64,000 nucleotides of DNA from NCBI GenBank assembly GCA_963825055.1, contig CAWGSK010000012.1, positions 448,001 through 512,000 on the forward strand, written 5' to 3'. This document shows positions 38,755 to 48,150 of the stretch, in pieces; position 1 is the stretch's first letter; every line of letters starts with the position of its first letter. The notes under the pieces are model-generated. The model made no database searches, was not told the DNA's origin, and was given only the letters and a program-made list of their open reading frames with translations. The translations under genes were made by a program, and so were the position numbers. The DNA is from an uncultured Gemmatimonadales bacterium. Lineage in GTDB: Bacteria > Gemmatimonadota > Gemmatimonadetes > Gemmatimonadales > GWC2-71-9.

Positions 38755-41700
38755 TCAGGAGCGCGGCTGTTCTCCGACGAGGGCCCCCAGCCGTTGCTTC
38801 ACCTCTCGCACCTGCGGCTGGAGCGCGGGGTCCGCGTCCTTCCAGAGATCGACGAACTTCGTGTAGTACTCCACGGCGGCACTGCGGTTCCCCTGACCCT
38901 CGTACAATTCTCCGAGGCGACGATACATCGCCGCGCGGGTGTCGAAGTCATTCTCGTGGCCGAAGAGATCCGGCGTGACCGCTTTGCGCAGGGCGGCGAT
39001 CGCCGAGTCGGGCTCGCCGATCTGCTCGAAGGCGGCTGAGAGGCGGAGTGCCCAGCCGCATCGACCACAGGATGAGTCTGCGGCGTATCGCAGGTGGGGG
39101 ACGGCCTCCCTCGCCTTTCCTTCGCGCAGCAGCAGGAGGCCCCGGATGCCCTCCTCCCACTCGGCCCGGCGCTGGCTCTCCGGCACGGCCCGATGATAGT
39201 CCTCTATCAACTCGCGTGCCCGTTCGGACGGCCCCGCCTCCGCATAGAGGGTGGCCAGCTGGAGGTACGGCCGGTCGGCCGGCGGTATGGAGTCGAGCGG
39301 GAAGCGCCGGAGGTCCGAATCCAGCAGCCGCGCGGCCCCCTCGGGATCGTTCTCGTACACGAGCTTCTTCCGCGACCGGTCGATCAGGTCGAAGATAGGA
39401 GTGGCTTTGATACCCCGTTCGCGGCCGACCTTCATCAGCGTCTGGCCATGACGGGCCGATTCATCGAGTTTCCCGTGCAGCCGGTCCAGCGAATACATCT
39501 CATAGTTCAGGAAGTCCTGCGCGGCCAGGTCGGGGTCACCGGCCAGCAGTCCCTCCCAGACGGCGTGGGCGCTGTCGGGGAGCCCGTTCAGGGCGAACAT
39601 GGCTCCCTTCCAGGGCAGGAACAGCTCGTGCGTGACCGGCGCGGCGAGGTAGCGGTCCAGGACGGTGTCGGCCTCGTCGACCTTGCCCTCGTTCACGAGC
39701 GTCTCGATCAGGTTCCCCCCGAAGGTTCGTGACGTTGTATCGAGCGTGGCCGCGCGACGGTAGAGCGATTCCGCCGCCGCGTACTGGCGGCGGCTGCCGT
39801 AGACGAGCGCCAGGTTGTTGAGGCTGACGAGGTCGTCCGGATTGCGCTCGAGCACGGCCTGGTACGCGCGGGCCGATTTCTCCTGGTCCGGCTCCACGAT
39901 GCGGTAGTAAAAGGCGATCGCGTGCAGGCGCTCGATCTCGGGCAACCGGTCGCGATACTGATAGGCCCGCGTCGCCGCGGCCACCGTGCGTTCGCGGCTG
40001 GCAAAGGTATTGGAGAGGATGACCGCCTGTTTCCGCCAGGCCATGGCGAAGGTACTGTCGAGCGTGGTCGCCTCCCCGAGCTTCTCGAGGGCCCGGTCGT
40101 ATGCGCCCTCCTTCTCCAGCTGCAATCCCTCGGTGTAGGCACGCAACGCGTCAATACTGCCCGTCGTCACCTGCGCCAGCGGCTGGTTTGCCCGGATTGT
40201 CCGGAGCGATTCGCCGATGCGCTCACGCAGATGCGAAGACAGGCGGTCGACCGCCCCGATCAAGGCATTGCCATCCGCTGCGGTTTCCCGGACCGCCACC
40301 AGGGTCGCGTTATCCGCAGGGGAGACGATCCTGGCCGAGAGGACGTACCCCGTCCCGATGGGGTCGATCTGTCCTACGATGATCGCCTTGAGGCCCTCGC
40401 GTTCGGCCATCTCGGATGCGACGGTGGGAGTCATCGGCGTATCGCGCGGACGGTTCATGCGGCCCAGCGCACCCGACACCGCGCGTTCGTCCAGCAGACG
40501 GACGACCGCCGACTGGGCCAGGTCGATCCGGAGCGCCTCGGTGACGGTCGAGCCCAGCGTGGAGTCGTTCGTGTGGTTTTCGAAGTCGGCCACGAGCAGC
40601 GGGTCCCGTTCGGAGAGCACACCGGAGGCCACCAGCGTTCCCACCGGACCGATGCCGAGGAGCCGCATGGCAGTGTACCCGGCCGCCACCAGGCCGAGAA
40701 CGGCAAAGGCCGCTACGCCTCCCATGACGGCCCGGCGCCAGGTGAACCATCCATGCCACCCACCAGCATCCGGCGCGGCGGCAGTGGTGCGCGCAAGGGC
40801 GCGGCGCCGTTCGACCAGCCCGGTGAGCAGCATGATCGGAAGACCGAGGGCGAGGAGGACAATGGCGCCTATCCAGACCCAGTCGGGCAGGCCGAGCTGC
40901 TGCACCAGCAGGTACACCACGGCGAGGACGAGTGCCCCCGCGCCGAGGAACATGGCCGCCACCCGGCCCGGGTGGCCCGCGCGGATGGCGGCGGCGGTTC
41001 CGGACGAGATCGTCCGGGCCCTGACCACCGGCTCGGTGGCGACCGGGGTGGACCCGGCCGGTGTGAGGCCGGCGCTGCTGAGGGCCAGGGCCTCGAGTTG
41101 CACCAGGACCTCATCCGCCGTCTGGGGGCGGTCGGATGGGTGCTTCTGGAGGCACGCCATGATCAGGGCTGCCAGCGCCGGCGGCACGGTCGGGCGGTGC
41201 GCGGTACAGGGTTCCGGGGTCTGGGTGACCTGTGCCGCGAGCACCGACTGCGGGGTTGGCCCGGTGAACGGCGGTCTCCCGCACAGCATCTCGTAGCCCA
41301 GCGCACCGAGGGCGTAGAGGTCGGCGCGGTGATCGATGTTCGGGTCTCCGGCAGCCTGCTCCGGGGCCATGTAGGCGGGCGTGCCGAGCGCCATGCCGAG
41401 GGACGTCAGCGACGTGGCCCCGCTGGAAGCCGACATGGCCTTGGCCACCCCGAAATCGGCCACCAGTGCGTGGCGCCCGGAGAGGAGTACGTTCTCAGGC
41501 TTGATGTCCCGGTGGACGATCCCCTGGGCATGCGCCGAGGCGAGCGCGTCTGCGATCTCGCGGAGGAGCGCAAGTGCCTCCGGCACCGGAAGCGCGCCGA
41601 CCCGTCCCATCCTGGTCCGGAGGGACTCGCCCTCGATATACGGCATGATGTAATACAGGAGGTCGTCCCGCGCGCCCGCGGTGAGCAGCGGGACGATGTG

Positions 41701-41916
41701 CGGGTGCTGGAGCTGGGCCGCGAGCTGGATCTCCCGGCGGAACCGGTCGACATTCACACCGGCCGCCATCTCGGGAGGAAGCACCTTGACCACGACGCGC
41801 CGCCCGAGTTCCGTGTCGGTCGCCAGAAATACTCGGCTCATCCCGCCACCGCCGAGCTCACGCTCGATGCGGCAGGTTTCGCCGAGGGCGGCCTGCAGGC
41901 GGTCAGTCAGCTCCAT
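38755..41916 (-). CDS. Hanks-type Ser/Thr kinase with TM segments and a C-terminal TPR region
   Basis: GGGGMS, VVVK, HRDIKPEN, DFG and GTPAYMAPEQ; three TM helices; TPR-like repeats. Confidence 0.93.
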   Translation of the reverse strand: MELTDRLQAALGETCRIERELGGGGMSRVFLATDTELGRRVVVKVLPPEMAAGVNVDRFRREIQLAAQLQHPHIVPLLTAGARDDLLYYIMPYIEGESLRTRMGRVGALPVPEALALLREIADALASAHAQGIVHRDIKPENVLLSGRHALVADFGVAKAMSASSGATSLTSLGMALGTPAYMAPEQAAGDPNIDHRADLYALGALGYEMLCGRPPFTGPTPQSVLAAQVTQTPEPCTAHRPTVPPALAALIMACLQKHPSDRPQTADEVLVQLEALALSSAGLTPAGSTPVATEPVVRARTISSGTAAAIRAGHPGRVAAMFLGAGALVLAVVYLLVQQLGLPDWVWIGAIVLLALGLPIMLLTGLVERRRALARTTAAAPDAGGWHGWFTWRRAVMGGVAAFAVLGLVAAGYTAMRLLGIGPVGTLVASGVLSERDPLLVADFENHTNDSTLGSTVTEALRIDLAQSAVVRLLDERAVSGALGRMNRPRDTPMTPTVASEMAEREGLKAIIVGQIDPIGTGYVLSARIVSPADNATLVAVRETAADGNALIGAVDRLSSHLRERIGESLRTIRANQPLAQVTTGSIDALRAYTEGLQLEKEGAYDRALEKLGEATTLDSTFAMAWRKQAVILSNTFASRERTVAAATRAYQYRDRLPEIERLHAIAFYYRIVEPDQEKSARAYQAVLERNPDDLVSLNNLALVYGSRRQYAAAESLYRRAATLDTTSRTFGGNLIETLVNEGKVDEADTVLDRYLAAPVTHELFLPWKGAMFALNGLPDSAHAVWEGLLAGDPDLAAQDFLNYEMYSLDRLHGKLDESARHGQTLMKVGRERGIKATPIFDLIDRSRKKLVYENDPEGAARLLDSDLRRFPLDSIPPADRPYLQLATLYAEAGPSERARELIEDYHRAVPESQRRAEWEEGIRGLLLLREGKAREAVPHLRYAADSSCGRCGWALRLSAAFEQIGEPDSAIAALRKAVTPDLFGHENDFDTRAAMYRRLGELYEGQGNRSAAVEYYTKFVDLWKDADPALQPQVREVKQRLGALVGEQPRS

Positions 41917-42038
41917 GCGGAGTCCCCGGGTAGCGTGCAGGTCTCAAAGGAAGGACCCCGTAAGATGGTCCGGTGGGGCCTCCCGGGCCAGTCCAGCCGG
42001 GGCTCAGCATCCGGAGGCTCCCGTGCGTACACAGAGAG

Positions 42039-42509
42039 TTGTCCGTCCCTGACCCGGAGTGCACCCTGACCCTGCGTCCCCTCCTCCTCGGCATTGTCCT
42101 GCTGGGCCTCCTCGGCACCGGCATCGAACTGCTCCTCCTGGGGCACACCGACGGGATCAGCCAGGTGGCCCCCGTGCTCCTGACCGGCGTCGCGATCCTG
42201 GCGGTCGTCTGGCAGTTCCTGGGGCCGGGCGCCGGATCGCTGCGGACGCTCCAGGCCGTCATGCTGCTGTGCGTCGTGGCAGGACTGGTGGGTATTGTGC
42301 TTCACTACCTGGGCAACCGGGAGTTCGAGCTGGAGACCTACCCTGAACTGGCGGGCTGGGCCCTGTTCCGTGAAACCATGACCGGTGCGACGCCCGCGCT
42401 GGCCCCCGCCGCGATGATGCACCTGGGGCTGCTTGGCCTGCTGTATACCTTTCGGCATCCGTTGCTTGCCCATGAGGGGCAGGCCTCCACTTCTCCCATG
42501 GAACCCTGA
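42039..42509 (+). CDS. hypothetical membrane protein (about 4 TM helices; start uncertain)
   Basis: Hydrophobic helices; its stop lies immediately before the next ATG; TTG 42039 is in frame. Confidence 0.7.
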   Translation: MSVPDPECTLTLRPLLLGIVLLGLLGTGIELLLLGHTDGISQVAPVLLTGVAILAVVWQFLGPGAGSLRTLQAVMLLCVVAGLVGIVLHYLGNREFELETYPELAGWALFRETMTGATPALAPAAMMHLGLLGLLYTFRHPLLAHEGQASTSPMEP

Positions 42510-42510
42510 T

Positions 42511-43155
42511 ATGCGCCTCTCCCGCATCCTTCGCACGGCCCTTCTCTGCTCCGCCGCGCTTGTCCCGGCGGCCGCCGCCCAGGTTGGCAAGCCGGTCGAC
42601 ATCATCAACCCCAACCTGGCCGGGGAGCCGGAACTGCTCGCCGTGCCGAACCTGGACGCGGCGGTGGTGAAGGCAATCATTGACCAGCGGCCGTTCTCCG
42701 GCATCCTGCCGCTCAACGTCATGCTGTCAAAGCTGCGCACCCCCGAGCAGCTGACTGAGGCCTACCGCCGGCTCTTCATCCCGATCAACCTCAACACCGC
42801 AACCCGCGAGGAAATCCTCCTGATCCCGGGCGTCGGCAACCGGATGCTGCGGGAGTTCATGGAATACCGGCCGTATCGTTCGCTCGCCGTCTTCCACCGG
42901 GAGATCGGCAAGTACGTGGACGACACGGAACTGGCCCGGCTGGAGCAGTATGTCTTCGTGCCGATCGACCTGAACACGGCGAGCGACGAGGACATTACCA
43001 GTATCCCGGGTGTGGGCCGCCGGATGCTCCGGGAGTTCAAGGAGTACCGGCCGTACCGGAACATCGAGCAGTTCCGGCGCGAGATCGGCAAGTACGTCGA
43101 TGCGCCTGAAGTGGCCCGGCTGGAGCGCTATGTCACCCTGACTCCCGCGCCGTGA
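42511..43155 (+). CDS. exported helix-hairpin-helix repeat protein (ComEA-like)
   Basis: Signal peptide; two near-identical 60-aa repeats (INLNTA..IPGVG.RM) plus a degenerate first repeat. Confidence 0.82.
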   Translation: MRLSRILRTALLCSAALVPAAAAQVGKPVDIINPNLAGEPELLAVPNLDAAVVKAIIDQRPFSGILPLNVMLSKLRTPEQLTEAYRRLFIPINLNTATREEILLIPGVGNRMLREFMEYRPYRSLAVFHREIGKYVDDTELARLEQYVFVPIDLNTASDEDITSIPGVGRRMLREFKEYRPYRNIEQFRREIGKYVDAPEVARLERYVTLTPAP

Positions 43156-43189
43156 CGTCCAGCAGGGAACCTGCTATCTTGGCAGGGTC

Positions 43190-43534
43190 ATGACCACGGC
43201 ATTGATGCGGCGGATCCTCTCGCTGGGCCTGCTCCTGACCTTCTTCGGGGGCGGGCTCGGCATGCCTCTCGCGGACGCCGCCCTCGACCACCGGGCGGCG
43301 AACCACGAGGGCGGCCGGATCCATGTCGAGTCGAGCGGCAATCCGCTGTGCCACGCCGAGCGTTGTGTGCTCGGCCTCGCCGCGGCGAACACGGGCGTGG
43401 CCACGAGGACTGGTACCCCCGCCCTCGGCAGCGTCCTCCATGATGCCCCGCTCATCCTGTACTTCCAGCCCGCGGCTCCCCGGCCGGCCGGGCGCCCCTC
43501 CCATCACAGTCGCGCACCACCACCGCTTTCCTGA
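43190..43534 (+). CDS. His/Cys-rich leader protein with a C-terminal RAPP motif (DUF2946/CruR-like arrest peptide candidate)
   Basis: N-terminal signal/TM segment, H-x4-H-x5-H-x8-CH-x3-C, C-terminal HHSRAPPPLS; upstream of metal uptake genes. Confidence 0.78.
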   Translation: MTTALMRRILSLGLLLTFFGGGLGMPLADAALDHRAANHEGGRIHVESSGNPLCHAERCVLGLAAANTGVATRTGTPALGSVLHDAPLILYFQPAAPRPAGRPSHHSRAPPPLS

Positions 43535-43639
43535 GCGATAGCGCGGCCTGAGCCGGCTTCGAGCCGTATCGGGACCGCCTGACGTCGAGACGTGGTCACC
43601 CGGGGCCCGGGTACCGCGGCCATCCATCTCAGGAGAGTG
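43524..43639 (+). promoter_or_regulatory. putative anti-SD/SD attenuator helix
   Basis: CGCTTTCCTGAG (43524-43535) can form 12 contiguous pairs (2 G-U) with CTCAGGAGAGTG (43628-43639), which contains the porin SD. Confidence 0.65.
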
Positions 43640-43641
43640 CC

Positions 43642-45024
43642 ATGCATCCGACATGCCGCCGAATGGCGGTCCTGTTCATCCTGCTGACCGCTCCAGCGGC
43701 CAGCCTGGCCGGGCAGCAGCCCGTATCGGCCGACTCCATGCGCCAGGGGCTCCGGGCGCTGACCGCGCGCCTCGATTCGCTCGAGGCGGGACAGTGTCCG
43801 CCAGCGCCGCTACAGCTGCCGGTGGTGCCGGGAACCGGCAACGCGGCAACTGATTCCCTCAGCGCGGCCATGCAGACCCTGGCCCGGCGCATGAACGCCA
43901 TGGCCGGCGCGCGCTGCGAACAGGTCACCGTGGTGATGGCTGACTCCGCCCGTGATGACCTGGCATCACTCCGGGAGGCTGCCGCCGGGGCTGCCGGCGG
44001 CGTGCCGGAGACGGCGCCCGCCGATACCGGTGCCGGACCGCAGTTCGTGAGTCTCCAGCGGAACCTCAACAAGTACAATCCCGAAATCAGCGCGACGGGT
44101 GACATCCGCCTCGTTGCGCGTGACGAAAATCCCCAGCGTGACAACGGTATCGCACGGGAGTTCGAGCTGGCGTTCCAGAGCAACCTCGATCCCTACTCCG
44201 CGACCAAGATCTACCTGACCTTCGAGGACGAGGAGATCGGGGTGGAGGAGGGGTACATCTACTACTCCGGCCTGCCGGGCAAGCTGCGGGTGGATCTCGG
44301 GAAGTTCCGCCAGGAGCTGGGCGACCTGAACCGCTGGCATCTCCACGCCCTTCCGGAGACCGAGTATCCCCTGGTTTACCAGCGGTACCTGAGCCCCGAG
44401 GGCCTCTCAGGGGTGGGACTGTCGCTCTACACGGTATTGCCCTTCGGGCTCGCCGGCGGGACACACGAGCTCTGGCTGCAGGGGACCACCACGTCAGAGC
44501 TGGATCCCCTCCTCGCCGGCAGCCGGCAGCCGCTTGGTCTGGCCCGGATACAGAACTTCTGGCAGCTCACGCGGAGCACGTACGCCCAGGTCGGTTTCAC
44601 CGGGATGCTCGGCGAGAACACCGACAGCAGCCTCACCAGCAACCTCACCGGCGCGGACTTCCGGTTCACCTGGCGCCCGCCCAACGCGGGCACACGCCGT
44701 GACCTCACCCTGCGGCTCGAGGGCTACCGCCTGCACGCGAACCTCGCCGGCACCGTGACCAACCGGTACGGCATGTTCGCCGACGCGCAGTTCAAGATGA
44801 GCCGGCGGTGGACCATCGGCGGACGGTACGACTACGTCGAGGCCGCCCGTGGGCCGTATGCCGACGAGTGGCGTATCACGCCCGCGCTTACCTGGTGGCA
44901 GAGCGAGTTCGTGTACCTCCGCCTGCAGGGGCAGCATCGGCGGGATCTGGACGGCGCCACCCGCAACGACCTCACGCTCCAGGCCGTCTGGGCCATGGGA
45001 CCGCACAAGCACGAGACCTACTGA
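43642..45024 (+). CDS. outer-membrane beta-barrel protein associated with metal uptake
   Basis: Signal peptide, coiled-coil N-terminus, NPEIS..D, amphipathic strands, WHLH, C-terminal GPHKHETY. Confidence 0.72.
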   Translation: MHPTCRRMAVLFILLTAPAASLAGQQPVSADSMRQGLRALTARLDSLEAGQCPPAPLQLPVVPGTGNAATDSLSAAMQTLARRMNAMAGARCEQVTVVMADSARDDLASLREAAAGAAGGVPETAPADTGAGPQFVSLQRNLNKYNPEISATGDIRLVARDENPQRDNGIAREFELAFQSNLDPYSATKIYLTFEDEEIGVEEGYIYYSGLPGKLRVDLGKFRQELGDLNRWHLHALPETEYPLVYQRYLSPEGLSGVGLSLYTVLPFGLAGGTHELWLQGTTTSELDPLLAGSRQPLGLARIQNFWQLTRSTYAQVGFTGMLGENTDSSLTSNLTGADFRFTWRPPNAGTRRDLTLRLEGYRLHANLAGTVTNRYGMFADAQFKMSRRWTIGGRYDYVEAARGPYADEWRITPALTWWQSEFVYLRLQGQHRRDLDGATRNDLTLQAVWAMGPHKHETY

Positions 45025-45058
45025 GCCGGTCCGGCCGGCCTGAACGAGGATATCAACC

Positions 45059-46087
45059 ATGTACCTTGCCGCACTCATGCTCCTGAGCGGGCTGGCTGGA
45101 CCGGGCACTCCCGCGCCGGCCACCGCCCCGATCAAGGTCGTCACCAGCCTCACGACCTACGGGGCGATCGCCCGCGAGATCGTCGGGGACCGGGGCACCG
45201 TCACATCCATCGCCCAGGGTGACGAGGACCCGCACTTCGTCCAGCCCAAGCCGAGCTTCGTCGCCATCCTGCGCGATGCCGACCTGTTCGTCACCACCGG
45301 ACTCGACCTGGAGCTCTGGGTTCCGCCCCTGCTCGACCGCGCCGGCAACCGGAAGGTGTCCGAGGGCGGCCCGGGATATGTCACGGCCTACACCGGCATC
45401 AAGCTCCTCGAGATTCCCTCATCCGTGGACCGGGCCCAGGGCGACCTTCACGCGGATGGCAACCCGCACATCCACACGGATCCGGTCAACGCGATCATCA
45501 TCGCCCGGAACATCCTGACCGGCCTGAAGCGCATCGCACCCTCGGACGCGGCTTACTACACCCAGCGGGAGCAGGGCTTCGAGCAGCGCGTGCTCGAGGC
45601 CACCGTGGGCCCCGAACTGGTCCGCCTCCTGACGCCGGCCACCACGTTCGAACTGCTGCGCAAGGACACGTTCCTCGACTTCATCCAGGGCAAGTCCTTC
45701 CAGGGCGCGCCGCTGTCCAGCCGCCTGGGCGGGTGGCTCAAGCAGGCCGAGCCGCTCCGCGGCAAGGACATGGCGTGTTACCACAAGGAGTGGGCCTACT
45801 TCACCAGCCGCTACCAGATCCGGTGTGTCGCGTACATCGAGGCGAAGCCGGGCATTCCGCCCACACCACGGCACGTCCAGGAAGTCATCACGCTGATGCG
45901 GGACAAGCACATCCCTGCCCTGTTTGCCTCGAATTACTTCAGCCACAGCCAGATCCAGCAGGTGGCGGAGAAGACCGGCGCGACCGCGGTGATCGTTCCC
46001 GAGAATACCGAGGGCGCTGATGGCATCCACACCTATTTCGACTTGATGAACACCTGGATCACCAGCCTGACCGCGGCCTACAGATGA
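45059..46087 (+). CDS. Zn/Mn ABC transporter substrate-binding protein (ZnuA/TroA family)
   Basis: DPHF, GLDLE.W, GNPHI, YH and EAKPGIPP motifs. Confidence 0.92.
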   Translation: MYLAALMLLSGLAGPGTPAPATAPIKVVTSLTTYGAIAREIVGDRGTVTSIAQGDEDPHFVQPKPSFVAILRDADLFVTTGLDLELWVPPLLDRAGNRKVSEGGPGYVTAYTGIKLLEIPSSVDRAQGDLHADGNPHIHTDPVNAIIIARNILTGLKRIAPSDAAYYTQREQGFEQRVLEATVGPELVRLLTPATTFELLRKDTFLDFIQGKSFQGAPLSSRLGGWLKQAEPLRGKDMACYHKEWAYFTSRYQIRCVAYIEAKPGIPPTPRHVQEVITLMRDKHIPALFASNYFSHSQIQQVAEKTGATAVIVPENTEGADGIHTYFDLMNTWITSLTAAYR

Positions 46088-46121
46088 GGGAGCCAGCCAT
46101 CATGACGCGAGGAGAGACCCG

Positions 46122-46946
46122 ATGCTCGAATTGATGCTGCCGCCGCTGGTCGCCTGCATGGTGATCGTGGCCATCCACTCCTACCTCGGCCTGCACATCA
46201 TCGCCCGGGAGGTCATCTTCGTCGACCTCTCCCTGGCACAGATGGCGGCGCTCGGCTCGGCGGTGGCAATCCTGGCCGGGGCCCAGCCGGACTCCACCTC
46301 CGCGTTCATTTATGCGCTCGGCTTCACGACGCTCGGTGCCTTCATTTTCTCCCTGACCCGGACGTCGGGCCGGGGACGGGTGCCGCAGGAGGCGATCATC
46401 GGTATCGTCTACGTGGTCGCGTCCGCCGCCGCGATCCTCGTGGCGGACCGCACGCCCCGCGGTGGCGAGGCCATCAAGGACATCCTGGTCGGCAGCCTGC
46501 TCTGGGTGACGTGGCCCGTGATCATCCGCCTGGCGCTGGTCTACGTGGCGCTCGGCGTGTTCCACTTCTTCCTGCGGAAACGCTTCCTGACCATCTCGTT
46601 CGACCCGGAGGCGGCGGAAGCGAAGGGCTGGCGGGTACGGTGGTGGGACTTCTGGTTCTATCTCTCGTTCGGCATCGTGATCACGTTCTCGGTCCCGGTG
46701 GCGGGTGTCCTGCTGGTGTTCTCGTTCCTGGTGGTTCCCGCCGCGGTGGCATTCCAGTTCAGCCGCCGACAGGGGGTACTGGCCGTGTTGTCCTGGCTCA
46801 CCGGCCTCGTCGCCAGCGCGGCGGGGCTGGCCATCTCCTTCCACTATGACCTGCCGACCGGCCCTGTGATCGTCTGCATGTTCGGGCTGCTGCTCCTGGT
46901 CGCCTACCTTGCCCGGAGGATGCTGCCCGGCTCCGTCGAGGCCTGA
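46122..46946 (+). CDS. Zn/Mn ABC transporter permease (ZnuB/ABC-3 family)
   Basis: IFVDLSLAQ, EAIIG, GVLLVFSFLVVPA and DLPTGP motifs. Confidence 0.9.
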   Translation: MLELMLPPLVACMVIVAIHSYLGLHIIAREVIFVDLSLAQMAALGSAVAILAGAQPDSTSAFIYALGFTTLGAFIFSLTRTSGRGRVPQEAIIGIVYVVASAAAILVADRTPRGGEAIKDILVGSLLWVTWPVIIRLALVYVALGVFHFFLRKRFLTISFDPEAAEAKGWRVRWWDFWFYLSFGIVITFSVPVAGVLLVFSFLVVPAAVAFQFSRRQGVLAVLSWLTGLVASAAGLAISFHYDLPTGPVIVCMFGLLLLVAYLARRMLPGSVEA

Positions 46947-46950
46947 GGGG

Positions 46951-48150
46951 TTACCTCGCGGTCGTAAGATCGAGGGCGGCCCGGACCAGCGCGCTCCAGC
47001 GCGCGAGGGCCGGGTCGTACTCGGCGTCATTGATGGTGTTCACTACGCCGATCACGGCGGTGGCCGTGCGCCGGTCGAAGAAGAGAAACGCGCGGAACCC
47101 CCCTTGTTCCCCCGTGTGTCCCACCAGGGTATCCGGCCCTGCCCGCATCAGGAAGAAGGACAGCCCCATGTCACCGGGGGCAATAGCGCTGTCGCTCACT
47201 GCGACGACCGGGCGCCACATCTCCTCGAGCGAGGCCCGGGAGAGGACCGTCGGGTAGCGCGCGGTGACGGCGCTGTCCGGTGCCGGCGTGTCCATCAGGA
47301 ATCGGGCCCAGGTGACGAGGTCATCGAGGGGCGCGTTCCAGCCTCCGTTCGGAATGGTGATCCCGGGGTCGAAGTCCCGGCCGTGCTCCACGACCCGCGC
47401 ACCCGCACTGTCCTGCTCCAGCGTGTAGCGGTTGGAGCGCGAAGCCGCGAGCCAGTAAGGCGTGGCCCCGAAATAACTCCGCGCCATGCCAAGGGGCGTC
47501 CAGATGTTCTTCTGGATATAGGACTCGTACGGCGTTCCGGTGAGTTGTTCCAGTATCCGGGCGAGATAGATGAACGCGGGGTTGCTGTAGCCGTACCTTG
47601 AGCCAGGGGCGAATCGGAGTTCCATGTATGGCATCATGGAAGCCAGCTGCTCCCATCGCGTCGGTTCGAAGGGCTGCCACGGTTCGGTCCCGCCCCAGGG
47701 CCAGGTGGGATTCTGGAAGCCCGAGCTGTGGGAGAGGAGCATCCGGATCGTCACGTCGTCCATTGATCCCCAGGGGTCGTGAACCTGGCGGAGCTCCGGC
47801 AGGTAGTCGGTGACGCGATCGTCGAGCGTCAGGAGCCCGCGGTCGCGAAGCTGCATGATGGCGACGGCGGTCAACGTCTTGGTGATGGAGCCGTAGTGGT
47901 ATATGGTGCCGGGGCCCGCCCGTTCGCCGCGGTCGCGATCCTGCCACCCCGCATCATGCCGTGCGATCACCCGGCCTTCCCGAAGCAGCACGACACTCCC
48001 GCCGACGATGCTGTCGCCTGCCAGGTGGCGGTCGAATGCCGCCGTGAAGGCATCCCACGCCTTCGGCACGCCGGCCTGTGCGCCGAGTTCGGGAGCACCC
48101 GCGAGGACGGCGAGGACGAGTGGGACAAGCCGGCGGATGGGATATGGCAT
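46951..48150 (-). CDS. serine hydrolase (beta-lactamase class C/PBP-like)
   Basis: SITK (SxxK), YSN and HTG motifs; LLSHSSG; signal peptide. Confidence 0.9.
   Translation of the reverse strand: MPYPIRRLVPLVLAVLAGAPELGAQAGVPKAWDAFTAAFDRHLAGDSIVGGSVVLLREGRVIARHDAGWQDRDRGERAGPGTIYHYGSITKTLTAVAIMQLRDRGLLTLDDRVTDYLPELRQVHDPWGSMDDVTIRMLLSHSSGFQNPTWPWGGTEPWQPFEPTRWEQLASMMPYMELRFAPGSRYGYSNPAFIYLARILEQLTGTPYESYIQKNIWTPLGMARSYFGATPYWLAASRSNRYTLEQDSAGARVVEHGRDFDPGITIPNGGWNAPLDDLVTWARFLMDTPAPDSAVTARYPTVLSRASLEEMWRPVVAVSDSAIAPGDMGLSFFLMRAGPDTLVGHTGEQGGFRAFLFFDRRTATAVIGVVNTINDAEYDPALARWSALVRAALDLTTAR

Follow-up and report, generated by a model that had tools for sequence, protein, structure and literature searches.

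A small open reading frame ending in RAPPPLS heads a porin and metal-transport operon in an uncultured Gemmatimonadales bacterium, and its final codons together with its stop codon are complementary to the porin gene's Shine-Dalgarno (SD) sequence. This raises the question of whether a ribosome arrested at the RAPP motif opens a helix that otherwise masks the porin SD, and to which signal such an arrest would respond. The locus was analysed within a window of 64,000 nucleotides, and all positions refer to this window unless another contig or locus is named. We find that the SD-masking helix is real and conserved; it is probably functional and probably part of a metal-sensing RAPP leader. A metal-sensing arrest-peptide switch with translational output is the reading that we consider likely.

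The operon and its leader peptide

The features of the locus are collected in Table 1.

Table 1. Features of the leader and porin operon, numbered from the first nucleotide of the window.
Feature	Position	Strand	Remark
TAnnnT hexamer, probably a -10 element giving a leaderless mRNA	43175..43180	+	15 nt before leader ATG
Leader ORF	43190..43534	+	114 aa; heads operon with porin, ZnuA-like and ZnuB-like genes
Hydrophobic segment, residues ~8-26	43211..43267	+	Predicted signal peptide or membrane anchor
Putative metal ligands His34, His55, Cys59	43289..43366	+	Invariant in 33/33 type-A leaders
C-rich, G-poor 3' part of leader	43421..43510	+	Possible Rho-loading stretch, CruR-like
Competing anti-SD arm in leader	43449..43459	+	Pairs with 43630-43639; not conserved
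RAPP arrest-motif codons	43511..43522	+	Predicted P site 43517-19, A site 43520-22
5' arm of SD-masking helix	43524..43535	+	UUCC 43528-31 (+12 to +15) opposite GGAG
Three-way junction bringing the arms together	43537..43624	+	MFE helices
3' arm with porin SD AGGAG (43631-35)	43628..43639	+	MFE fold, pair recount
Outer-membrane porin-like protein, 460 aa	43642..45024	+	WHLH and C-terminal GPHKHETY invariant
ZnuA-family periplasmic metal-binding protein	45059..46087	+	PF01297, E 5e-49; three His at ligand positions
ABC-3 (ZnuB-like) permease	46122..46946	+	PF00950, E 7e-36

The porin-like protein was searched against both Pfam and NCBIfam and no family was assigned. It was modelled as a beta-barrel (pLDDT 71), resembling at about 10% identity the structures of OmpT, OmpF, OmpU and OprO, i.e. 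general and phosphate porins. The invariant WHLH lies in a loop, and an N-terminal helical region carries two invariant cysteines. The top NCBIfam match of the ZnuA-like protein is AztC, under the cut-off. Its third ligand position aligns with a histidine of the streptococcal laminin-binding protein, and the ligand motif is retained in 91 loci. Three histidine ligands in a cluster A-I protein presumably indicate zinc rather than manganese. The gene after the permease lies on the opposite strand and an ATPase gene is absent beside 45059-46946; none of the 51 ABC ATPase matches in the genome, which is 87% complete, scored above the ZnuC cut-off. In this genome the leader, porin, ZnuA-like and permease genes are present in one copy each, and a relaxed scan combined with a profile search returned no second credible leader. 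A single Fur-family gene was found (contig C12, 136218-136565). Equal-scoring matches on contig C12 and on C21 or C25 suggest assembly duplications.

Rfam gave one match in 41000-47000 (RAGATH-31, E 3.2), which is at chance level, and there is thus no known riboswitch in this region. No intrinsic terminator was found at the locus, and a strict scan found no sigma-70 site at the leader. A TAnnnT hexamer is located 11-16 nt ahead of the start in 55 of the 62 leaders with a called start, a spacing that suggests leaderless mRNAs. The gene directly upstream (42433-43155) encodes a tandem helix-hairpin-helix protein; among 81 loci it adjoins the operon just once.

The leader carries a hydrophobic N-terminus, a His/His/Cys site and the C-terminal RAPPPLS. 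Residues 8-26 or thereabouts form a helix in the structure model (pLDDT about 90) and are hydrophobic in an alignment of leaders; the model as a whole is largely disordered (pTM 0.35) and uninformative on the metal site. Binding of a metal by His34, His55 and Cys59 is a prediction from sequence. Asp29 is almost invariant among the leaders of the same type, and R, P and P of the motif, which reads RAPPP in full here, are invariant.

A profile of the leader family matches 463 clusters at 50% identity. Among 150 representatives, 148 have HxxxC, 145 have RAPP near the C-terminus, as this leader does, and none has CxxC; this leader has C-x4-C, of which the second cysteine alone is invariant. Two types of leader precede the same porin. 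Type A, to which this leader belongs, has the invariant His34, His55 and Cys59, and type B has His-x-Glu together with CxxC. The distance from cysteine to RAPP is 48 residues here, 46-48 in 35 type-A leaders and 45 in 27/27 type-B leaders. When the type-A profile was compared with one type-B leader only the RAPP tail was aligned (probability 14%), which leaves a common ancestry of the two types unsupported. Membership of DUF2946 (PF11162) was assessed for both: this leader scores 15.8 bits, under the gathering cut-off of 23.7; a match at E 0.1 was obtained for only four of the 33 type-A leaders, the best of them at E 0.0073, and one of the 14 type-B leaders scanned is above the cut-off (24.9 bits).

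For comparison between genomes, the best 80 of 213 porin loci were kept, 79 of which are titled Gemmatimonadota. The analysis set consisted of 64 of these and the window; each of its 65 loci has an RxPP leader and a porin whose start could be called. The 16 loci dropped comprise eight with short upstream DNA, one without a porin frame, one with a 5'-truncated porin behind another gene, two with a leader outside the rules (L010, with RPPP, and L013) and four truly without a leader gene. The ZnuA-like and then the ZnuB-like gene are found downstream in 78 and 74 of 81 loci, respectively, and most misses are contig ends. Additionally, a sample of the phylum was used, in which 67 of 151 genomes have the porin; a leader with a cysteine 43-48 residues before RxPP is present in 35 of 37 loci examined from this sample (L095-L131).

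The SD-masking helix and a modelled ribosome footprint

The preliminary description of this DNA had proposed a helix of 12 contiguous pairs between the leader's end and the porin SD, and on recounting it was confirmed: 43524-43535 pairs with 43628-43639 through 10 Watson-Crick and 2 G-U pairs, the arms are 92 nt apart, the 3' arm contains AGGAG and stops 2 nt before the ATG at 43642, and the 5' arm crosses the leader stop (43532-34) and starts 1 nt past the RAPP codons, i.e. within the third Pro codon of RAPPP. On folding of 43480-43660 the helix was present in both the MFE and the centroid structure, with pair probabilities of 0.88-1.0. A helix of 12 pairs between the same 26-nt slot and the 20 nt before the porin ATG was obtained in 1 of 2000 dinucleotide shuffles; when any place within 432 nt was allowed, 3 of 500 shuffles gave one of this length. 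The complete fold of 43480-43660 shows no unusual stability (z -1.21).

Three small hairpins had been suggested to bring the arms together. CGGCT/AGCCG does form, and the other two were wrong as given. ACGTC/GACGT needs a loop of 2 nt and its 4-bp version has probability 0, and ACCCGGG/CCCGGGT, which at full length would leave a loop of 1 nt, is limited to 6 bp (43598-603/43607-12). The helix instead encloses a three-way junction made up of the compound arms 43541-78 and 43591-618 plus GAU/AUC.

In the stalls at ApdA and ApdP, Pro occupies the P site as well as the A site (PMC7897499), and on this geometry 43517-19 was placed in the P site. With the first Pro there, the 5' arm occupies +8 to +19. 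The 3' edge of a ribosome lies at +11 to +15. Of the claim that the 5' arm falls inside the footprint of the stalled ribosome, 4-8 of the 12 pairs hold, and the remainder are outside. With the modelled footprint the cost of opening the SD at this locus decreases from 11.6 kcal/mol to 8.8 (edge at +11), 6.7 (+13) or 5.4 (+15). The znuA SD of the same operon has an opening cost of 6.1, near that of the porin SD opened by the footprint.

The same calculation was carried out on the 65 loci. The median opening cost fell from 10.2 to 5.9 with the footprint, and the drop was at least 2 kcal/mol in 48 loci, compared with 5/65 in a control with the 21 nt before RAPP removed. As a paired control we used the porin-znuA junction of the 35 loci with a callable znuA start. 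A drop of at least 2 kcal/mol was found at the leader in 24/35 versus 2/35 at this junction; the medians were an opening cost of 10.5 and a drop of 4.0 for the porin SD, against 4.6 and 0.2 for the znuA SD.

The helix in this copy depends on the segment that is folded. Its probability is 0 in folds that start at 43400, 0.02 from 43190 and about 0.8 for 43150-43760. It is lost in the folds from 43400 and 43190 because 43449-43459 pairs with the same SD, with a duplex energy of -13.9 versus -18.2 kcal/mol for the main helix. The expectation that the SD becomes free once the end of the leader is held single-stranded failed in a constrained fold of 43400-43700, owing to this upstream arm. Likewise, with the whole leader free to fold and one stalled ribosome, the opening cost went only from 8.3 to 7.7, as the arm masks the porin SD again; three queued ribosomes, or a span limit of 150 nt, were needed for a cost of 5.5-5.9 in this copy. 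The orthologs show no conserved pairing peak at the offset of the competing arm. In these models the competing arm is a real caveat for this copy, though not a conserved one.

Conservation of the pairing

A duplex scan was performed on 64 rows (L014 omitted, L011 with a provisional start). On average over the rows, pairing with the porin SD region is strongest 6-15 nt past the Arg codon, where the mean duplex energy is -11.2 to -12.4 kcal/mol, compared with -7 to -9.6 kcal/mol elsewhere. A 4-mer complementary to GGAG is present in 48 of the 65 loci, and in 45 of the 65 it is 14-17 nt from the Arg codon. The offset is exactly 15 in 35 of those 48, although the tails of the leaders vary from 1 to 5 codons; the anti-SD thus keeps its distance to RAPP and not to the stop codon. 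The four pairs of the anti-GGAG are formed in 35, 32, 33 and 27 of 44 distinct arms, versus 18-26 in shuffles. Furthermore, the Leu two codons past RAPP is encoded by CUC or CUU in 40 of 42 cases, versus 133 of 214 in the 30 codons upstream of RAPP.

Own arms pair better than swapped ones (P 0.00025 for type A; 0/20000 for type B), values that, like the other P values of this analysis, are overstated since the loci are related, and the cognate arm is the best partner in only 4 of the 64 rows. When the loci were collapsed to 25 leader lineages, the anti-SD was at offset 14-17 in 12 and the footprint drop of at least 2 kcal/mol was seen in 15. In the other 10 the helix is weak or absent and there is no footprint effect, which is also missing in several distant loci.

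Covariation across orthologs, proposed earlier as a check on the helix, was weak: among 24 independent pairs, 6 of 22 double changes keep the pairing, as do 12 of 54 single changes. At the inner pairs 4 of 15 double changes keep it, with 0-3 of 2-17 in controls in which the arms were slid. Bulges displace the register of the helix between orthologs. RNAalifold was run on three alignments. It recovered the CUCC/GGAG helix on one of them (A6), only an inner hairpin on A5, in which the 3' arms do not line up, and no structure on A1. For A6 the number of paired cells and the covariation score beat the shuffles (4/500 and 3/500, respectively); the number of pairs with double changes was not above them (406/500).

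The weak covariation, the loss of the helix in some longer folds and a whole fold no stabler than shuffles would all suit a helix that is static or incidental in GC-rich RNA and serves a low basal level, or ordinary coupling via the leader stop. Such a helix would not be expected to be as rare in shuffles as 1 in 2000, nor its anti-SD to follow RAPP instead of the stop codon, and we regard this explanation as very improbable.

Relation to known arrest peptides and proposed mechanism

Known systems are compared here as the available portions of the cited papers describe them. Opening of an SD by a stalled ribosome has already been shown for CutF (copper) and SecM. In CutF-cutO of Rhodobacter capsulatus the cutO SD is covered by a stem-loop, and expression is freed when the anti-SD is mutated (PMC9973294; 10.1101/2025.02.05.636593). 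The leader studied here resembles CutF in having, by computation, a stem-loop over the downstream SD that a stalled ribosome could reach, and differs in that the helix closes a 92-nt three-way junction. CutF has CxxxC, responds to copper and turns a detoxifying oxidase on with metal, whereas His/His/Cys, a porin and a zinc-type importer are found here; judging from the importer genes, the polarity is probably inverted. His-only CutF-like clusters before Ni/Co genes have been noted, and the list of 5,334 proteins in the same paper may include this gene context (PMC9973294).

CruR (Bp2923; DUF2946/PF11162) of Bordetella pertussis acts by Rho-dependent termination (PMC9426467). As described there, CruR shares with this leader the position as first gene of a metal-import operon, here with conserved gene order, an export signal (here a predicted N-terminal hydrophobic helix), RAPP a few residues from the end, a C-rich 3' half and an arrest that metal is expected to relieve. 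The metal motif of CruR is about 45 residues before RAPP; against a spacing of 45 plus or minus 2 residues, the type-B orthologs have exactly 45 and this leader has 48. CruR, however, has CxxC and precedes a TonB-dependent receptor, whereas this leader is without CxxC and precedes the porin and ZnuA/ZnuB-like genes.

SecM, ApdA and ApdP arrest at RAPP or RAGP near the C-terminus, and in SecM a stem-loop that covers the secA SD is broken up by the stall (PMC7897499; PMC10951233). In the portions of these papers available, the three monitor protein localisation, precede sec or yidC genes and are without a metal site; here the genes downstream encode the porin, the ZnuA-like protein and the ABC-3 permease, which is not a Sec/YidC-monitoring context. 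The preliminary description had named a secM/mifM-type switch. Its core, an arrest that unmasks the SD, fits the geometry, the energies and the orthologs; its choice of model does not, and metal sensing of the CutF/CruR class is preferred because no sec or yidC gene lies downstream.

Exported RAPP/RGPP leaders have been described as a genome-wide class before TonB receptor, YcnI, PCu(A)C and PepSY genes, and some RAPP/RGPP small proteins with conserved His/Cys arrest translation in Streptomyces (PMC12992588). In the main text of that paper zinc, stem and Gemmatimonad have no occurrences. The first gene of a zinc efflux operon that Zur activates in Caulobacter belongs to DUF2946 (PMC4176598). 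A literature search, with large supplementary lists outside it, returned no report of this porin operon or of a zinc-sensing RAPP leader, and no paper combining CruR, arrest peptide and zinc.

The metal-sensing switch that we favour would operate as follows. The leader would be translated from a leaderless mRNA and enter the Sec channel through its hydrophobic N-terminus. By analogy with ApdA/ApdP and CruR, the ribosome would stall with RAP-tRNA in the P site. In the model its mRNA entry channel (+11 to +15) keeps the anti-SD arm open, and porin translation would begin. Scarcity of metal would prolong the stall, a polarity assumed because the operon is an importer. Metal on His34/His55/Cys59, 48 residues before RAPP, would fold the chain and release the arrest, upon which the helix would re-form and the operon would be switched off. 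Where the porin mRNA goes untranslated, Rho polarity may strengthen this off state. The likeliest metal to be sensed would be zinc, to which we incline slightly.

The main output could instead be attenuation of the CruR type, in which the stall blocks Rho loading on the C-rich 3' half of the leader and the helix is secondary or lineage-specific. The C-G skew is 0.33 at 43421-43510, and over the last 90 nt before RAPP its median is 0.29 in 62 leaders versus 0.03 in the porin barrel. The C-richness arises partly because the coding is proline-rich, and the skew is also found at third codon positions (0.28 versus 0.16). A U-tract terminator is absent from 63 of 65 intergenic regions, including this one, CruR itself regulates an importer by the Rho-dependent route, and the helix effect is missing in 10 of the 25 lineages. 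A model with Rho only, however, does not predict that the anti-SD stays at a fixed position, nor does it predict the bias among synonymous codons or the result of the znuA control, and the two outputs can coexist. We consider Rho as the main output unlikely.

Alternatively, the helix is the switch, and the leader either monitors secretion or insertion, as do SecM and MifM, or has the polarity of CutF with a metal-induced stall. A signal segment followed by RAPP is the design of a monitoring substrate, and export of the porin requires Sec; the His/His/Cys site, which is invariant and keeps a set distance of 46-48 residues to RAPP, argues against monitoring. CutF stalls when metal is present, but the genes downstream here are those of a metal importer in nearly all loci, so that induction by metal makes little sense. 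Together these variants appear distinctly unlikely.

A broader proposal, put forward tentatively and with some doubt, is that zinc import in Gemmatimonadota may be run by a nascent-chain zinc sensor and not by a DNA-binding repressor. An exported RAPP peptide, translated from a leaderless mRNA, would read periplasmic zinc through His/His/Cys, the arrest would be released, and the helix would close the porin SD. If true, this would join the polarity of CruR to the output of CutF and be the first zinc-sensing arrest peptide. In the portions of the literature compared here, metal-sensing arrest peptides are demonstrated for copper only; with a phylum-wide version before a porin and a zinc-type importer, sensing by nascent chains would reach a further metal and a lineage with little genetics. 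Two interchangeable ligand sets are found before the same operon at nearly equal distance from RAPP, which provides a natural comparison for metal selectivity. An anti-SD whose position relative to the P site is fixed, at +10 to +15, allows an exact test of gating of a downstream gene by a stalled ribosome.

Some loci depart from the common arrangement. The leader of L010 (about 1870-2150) has RPPP in place of RAPP at its end and is otherwise a typical type-A leader, and that of L066 (about 2500-2913) is split across two frames. One shared gene follows the operon in 17 of 81 loci (e.g. L002:6683-7410), and we take it to resemble the start of a TonB-dependent receptor. L038, L040, L044 and L068 are without a RAPP leader and share another conserved stretch, which lies some 60-170 nt upstream of the porin start. 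It contains a small hairpin, and some of its folds show CCUGC/GCAGG pairing; Rfam gave no match in these four loci. Three of them are divergent from a gene that is presumably a BlaI-like repressor. The pattern also occurs in L132 and L133, and a count over 251 genomes of the family gave it in 2, both of the same genus. The stretch contains one reading frame with synonymous changes, and may thus encode a short peptide, unless it acts as a promoter or as an RNA element.
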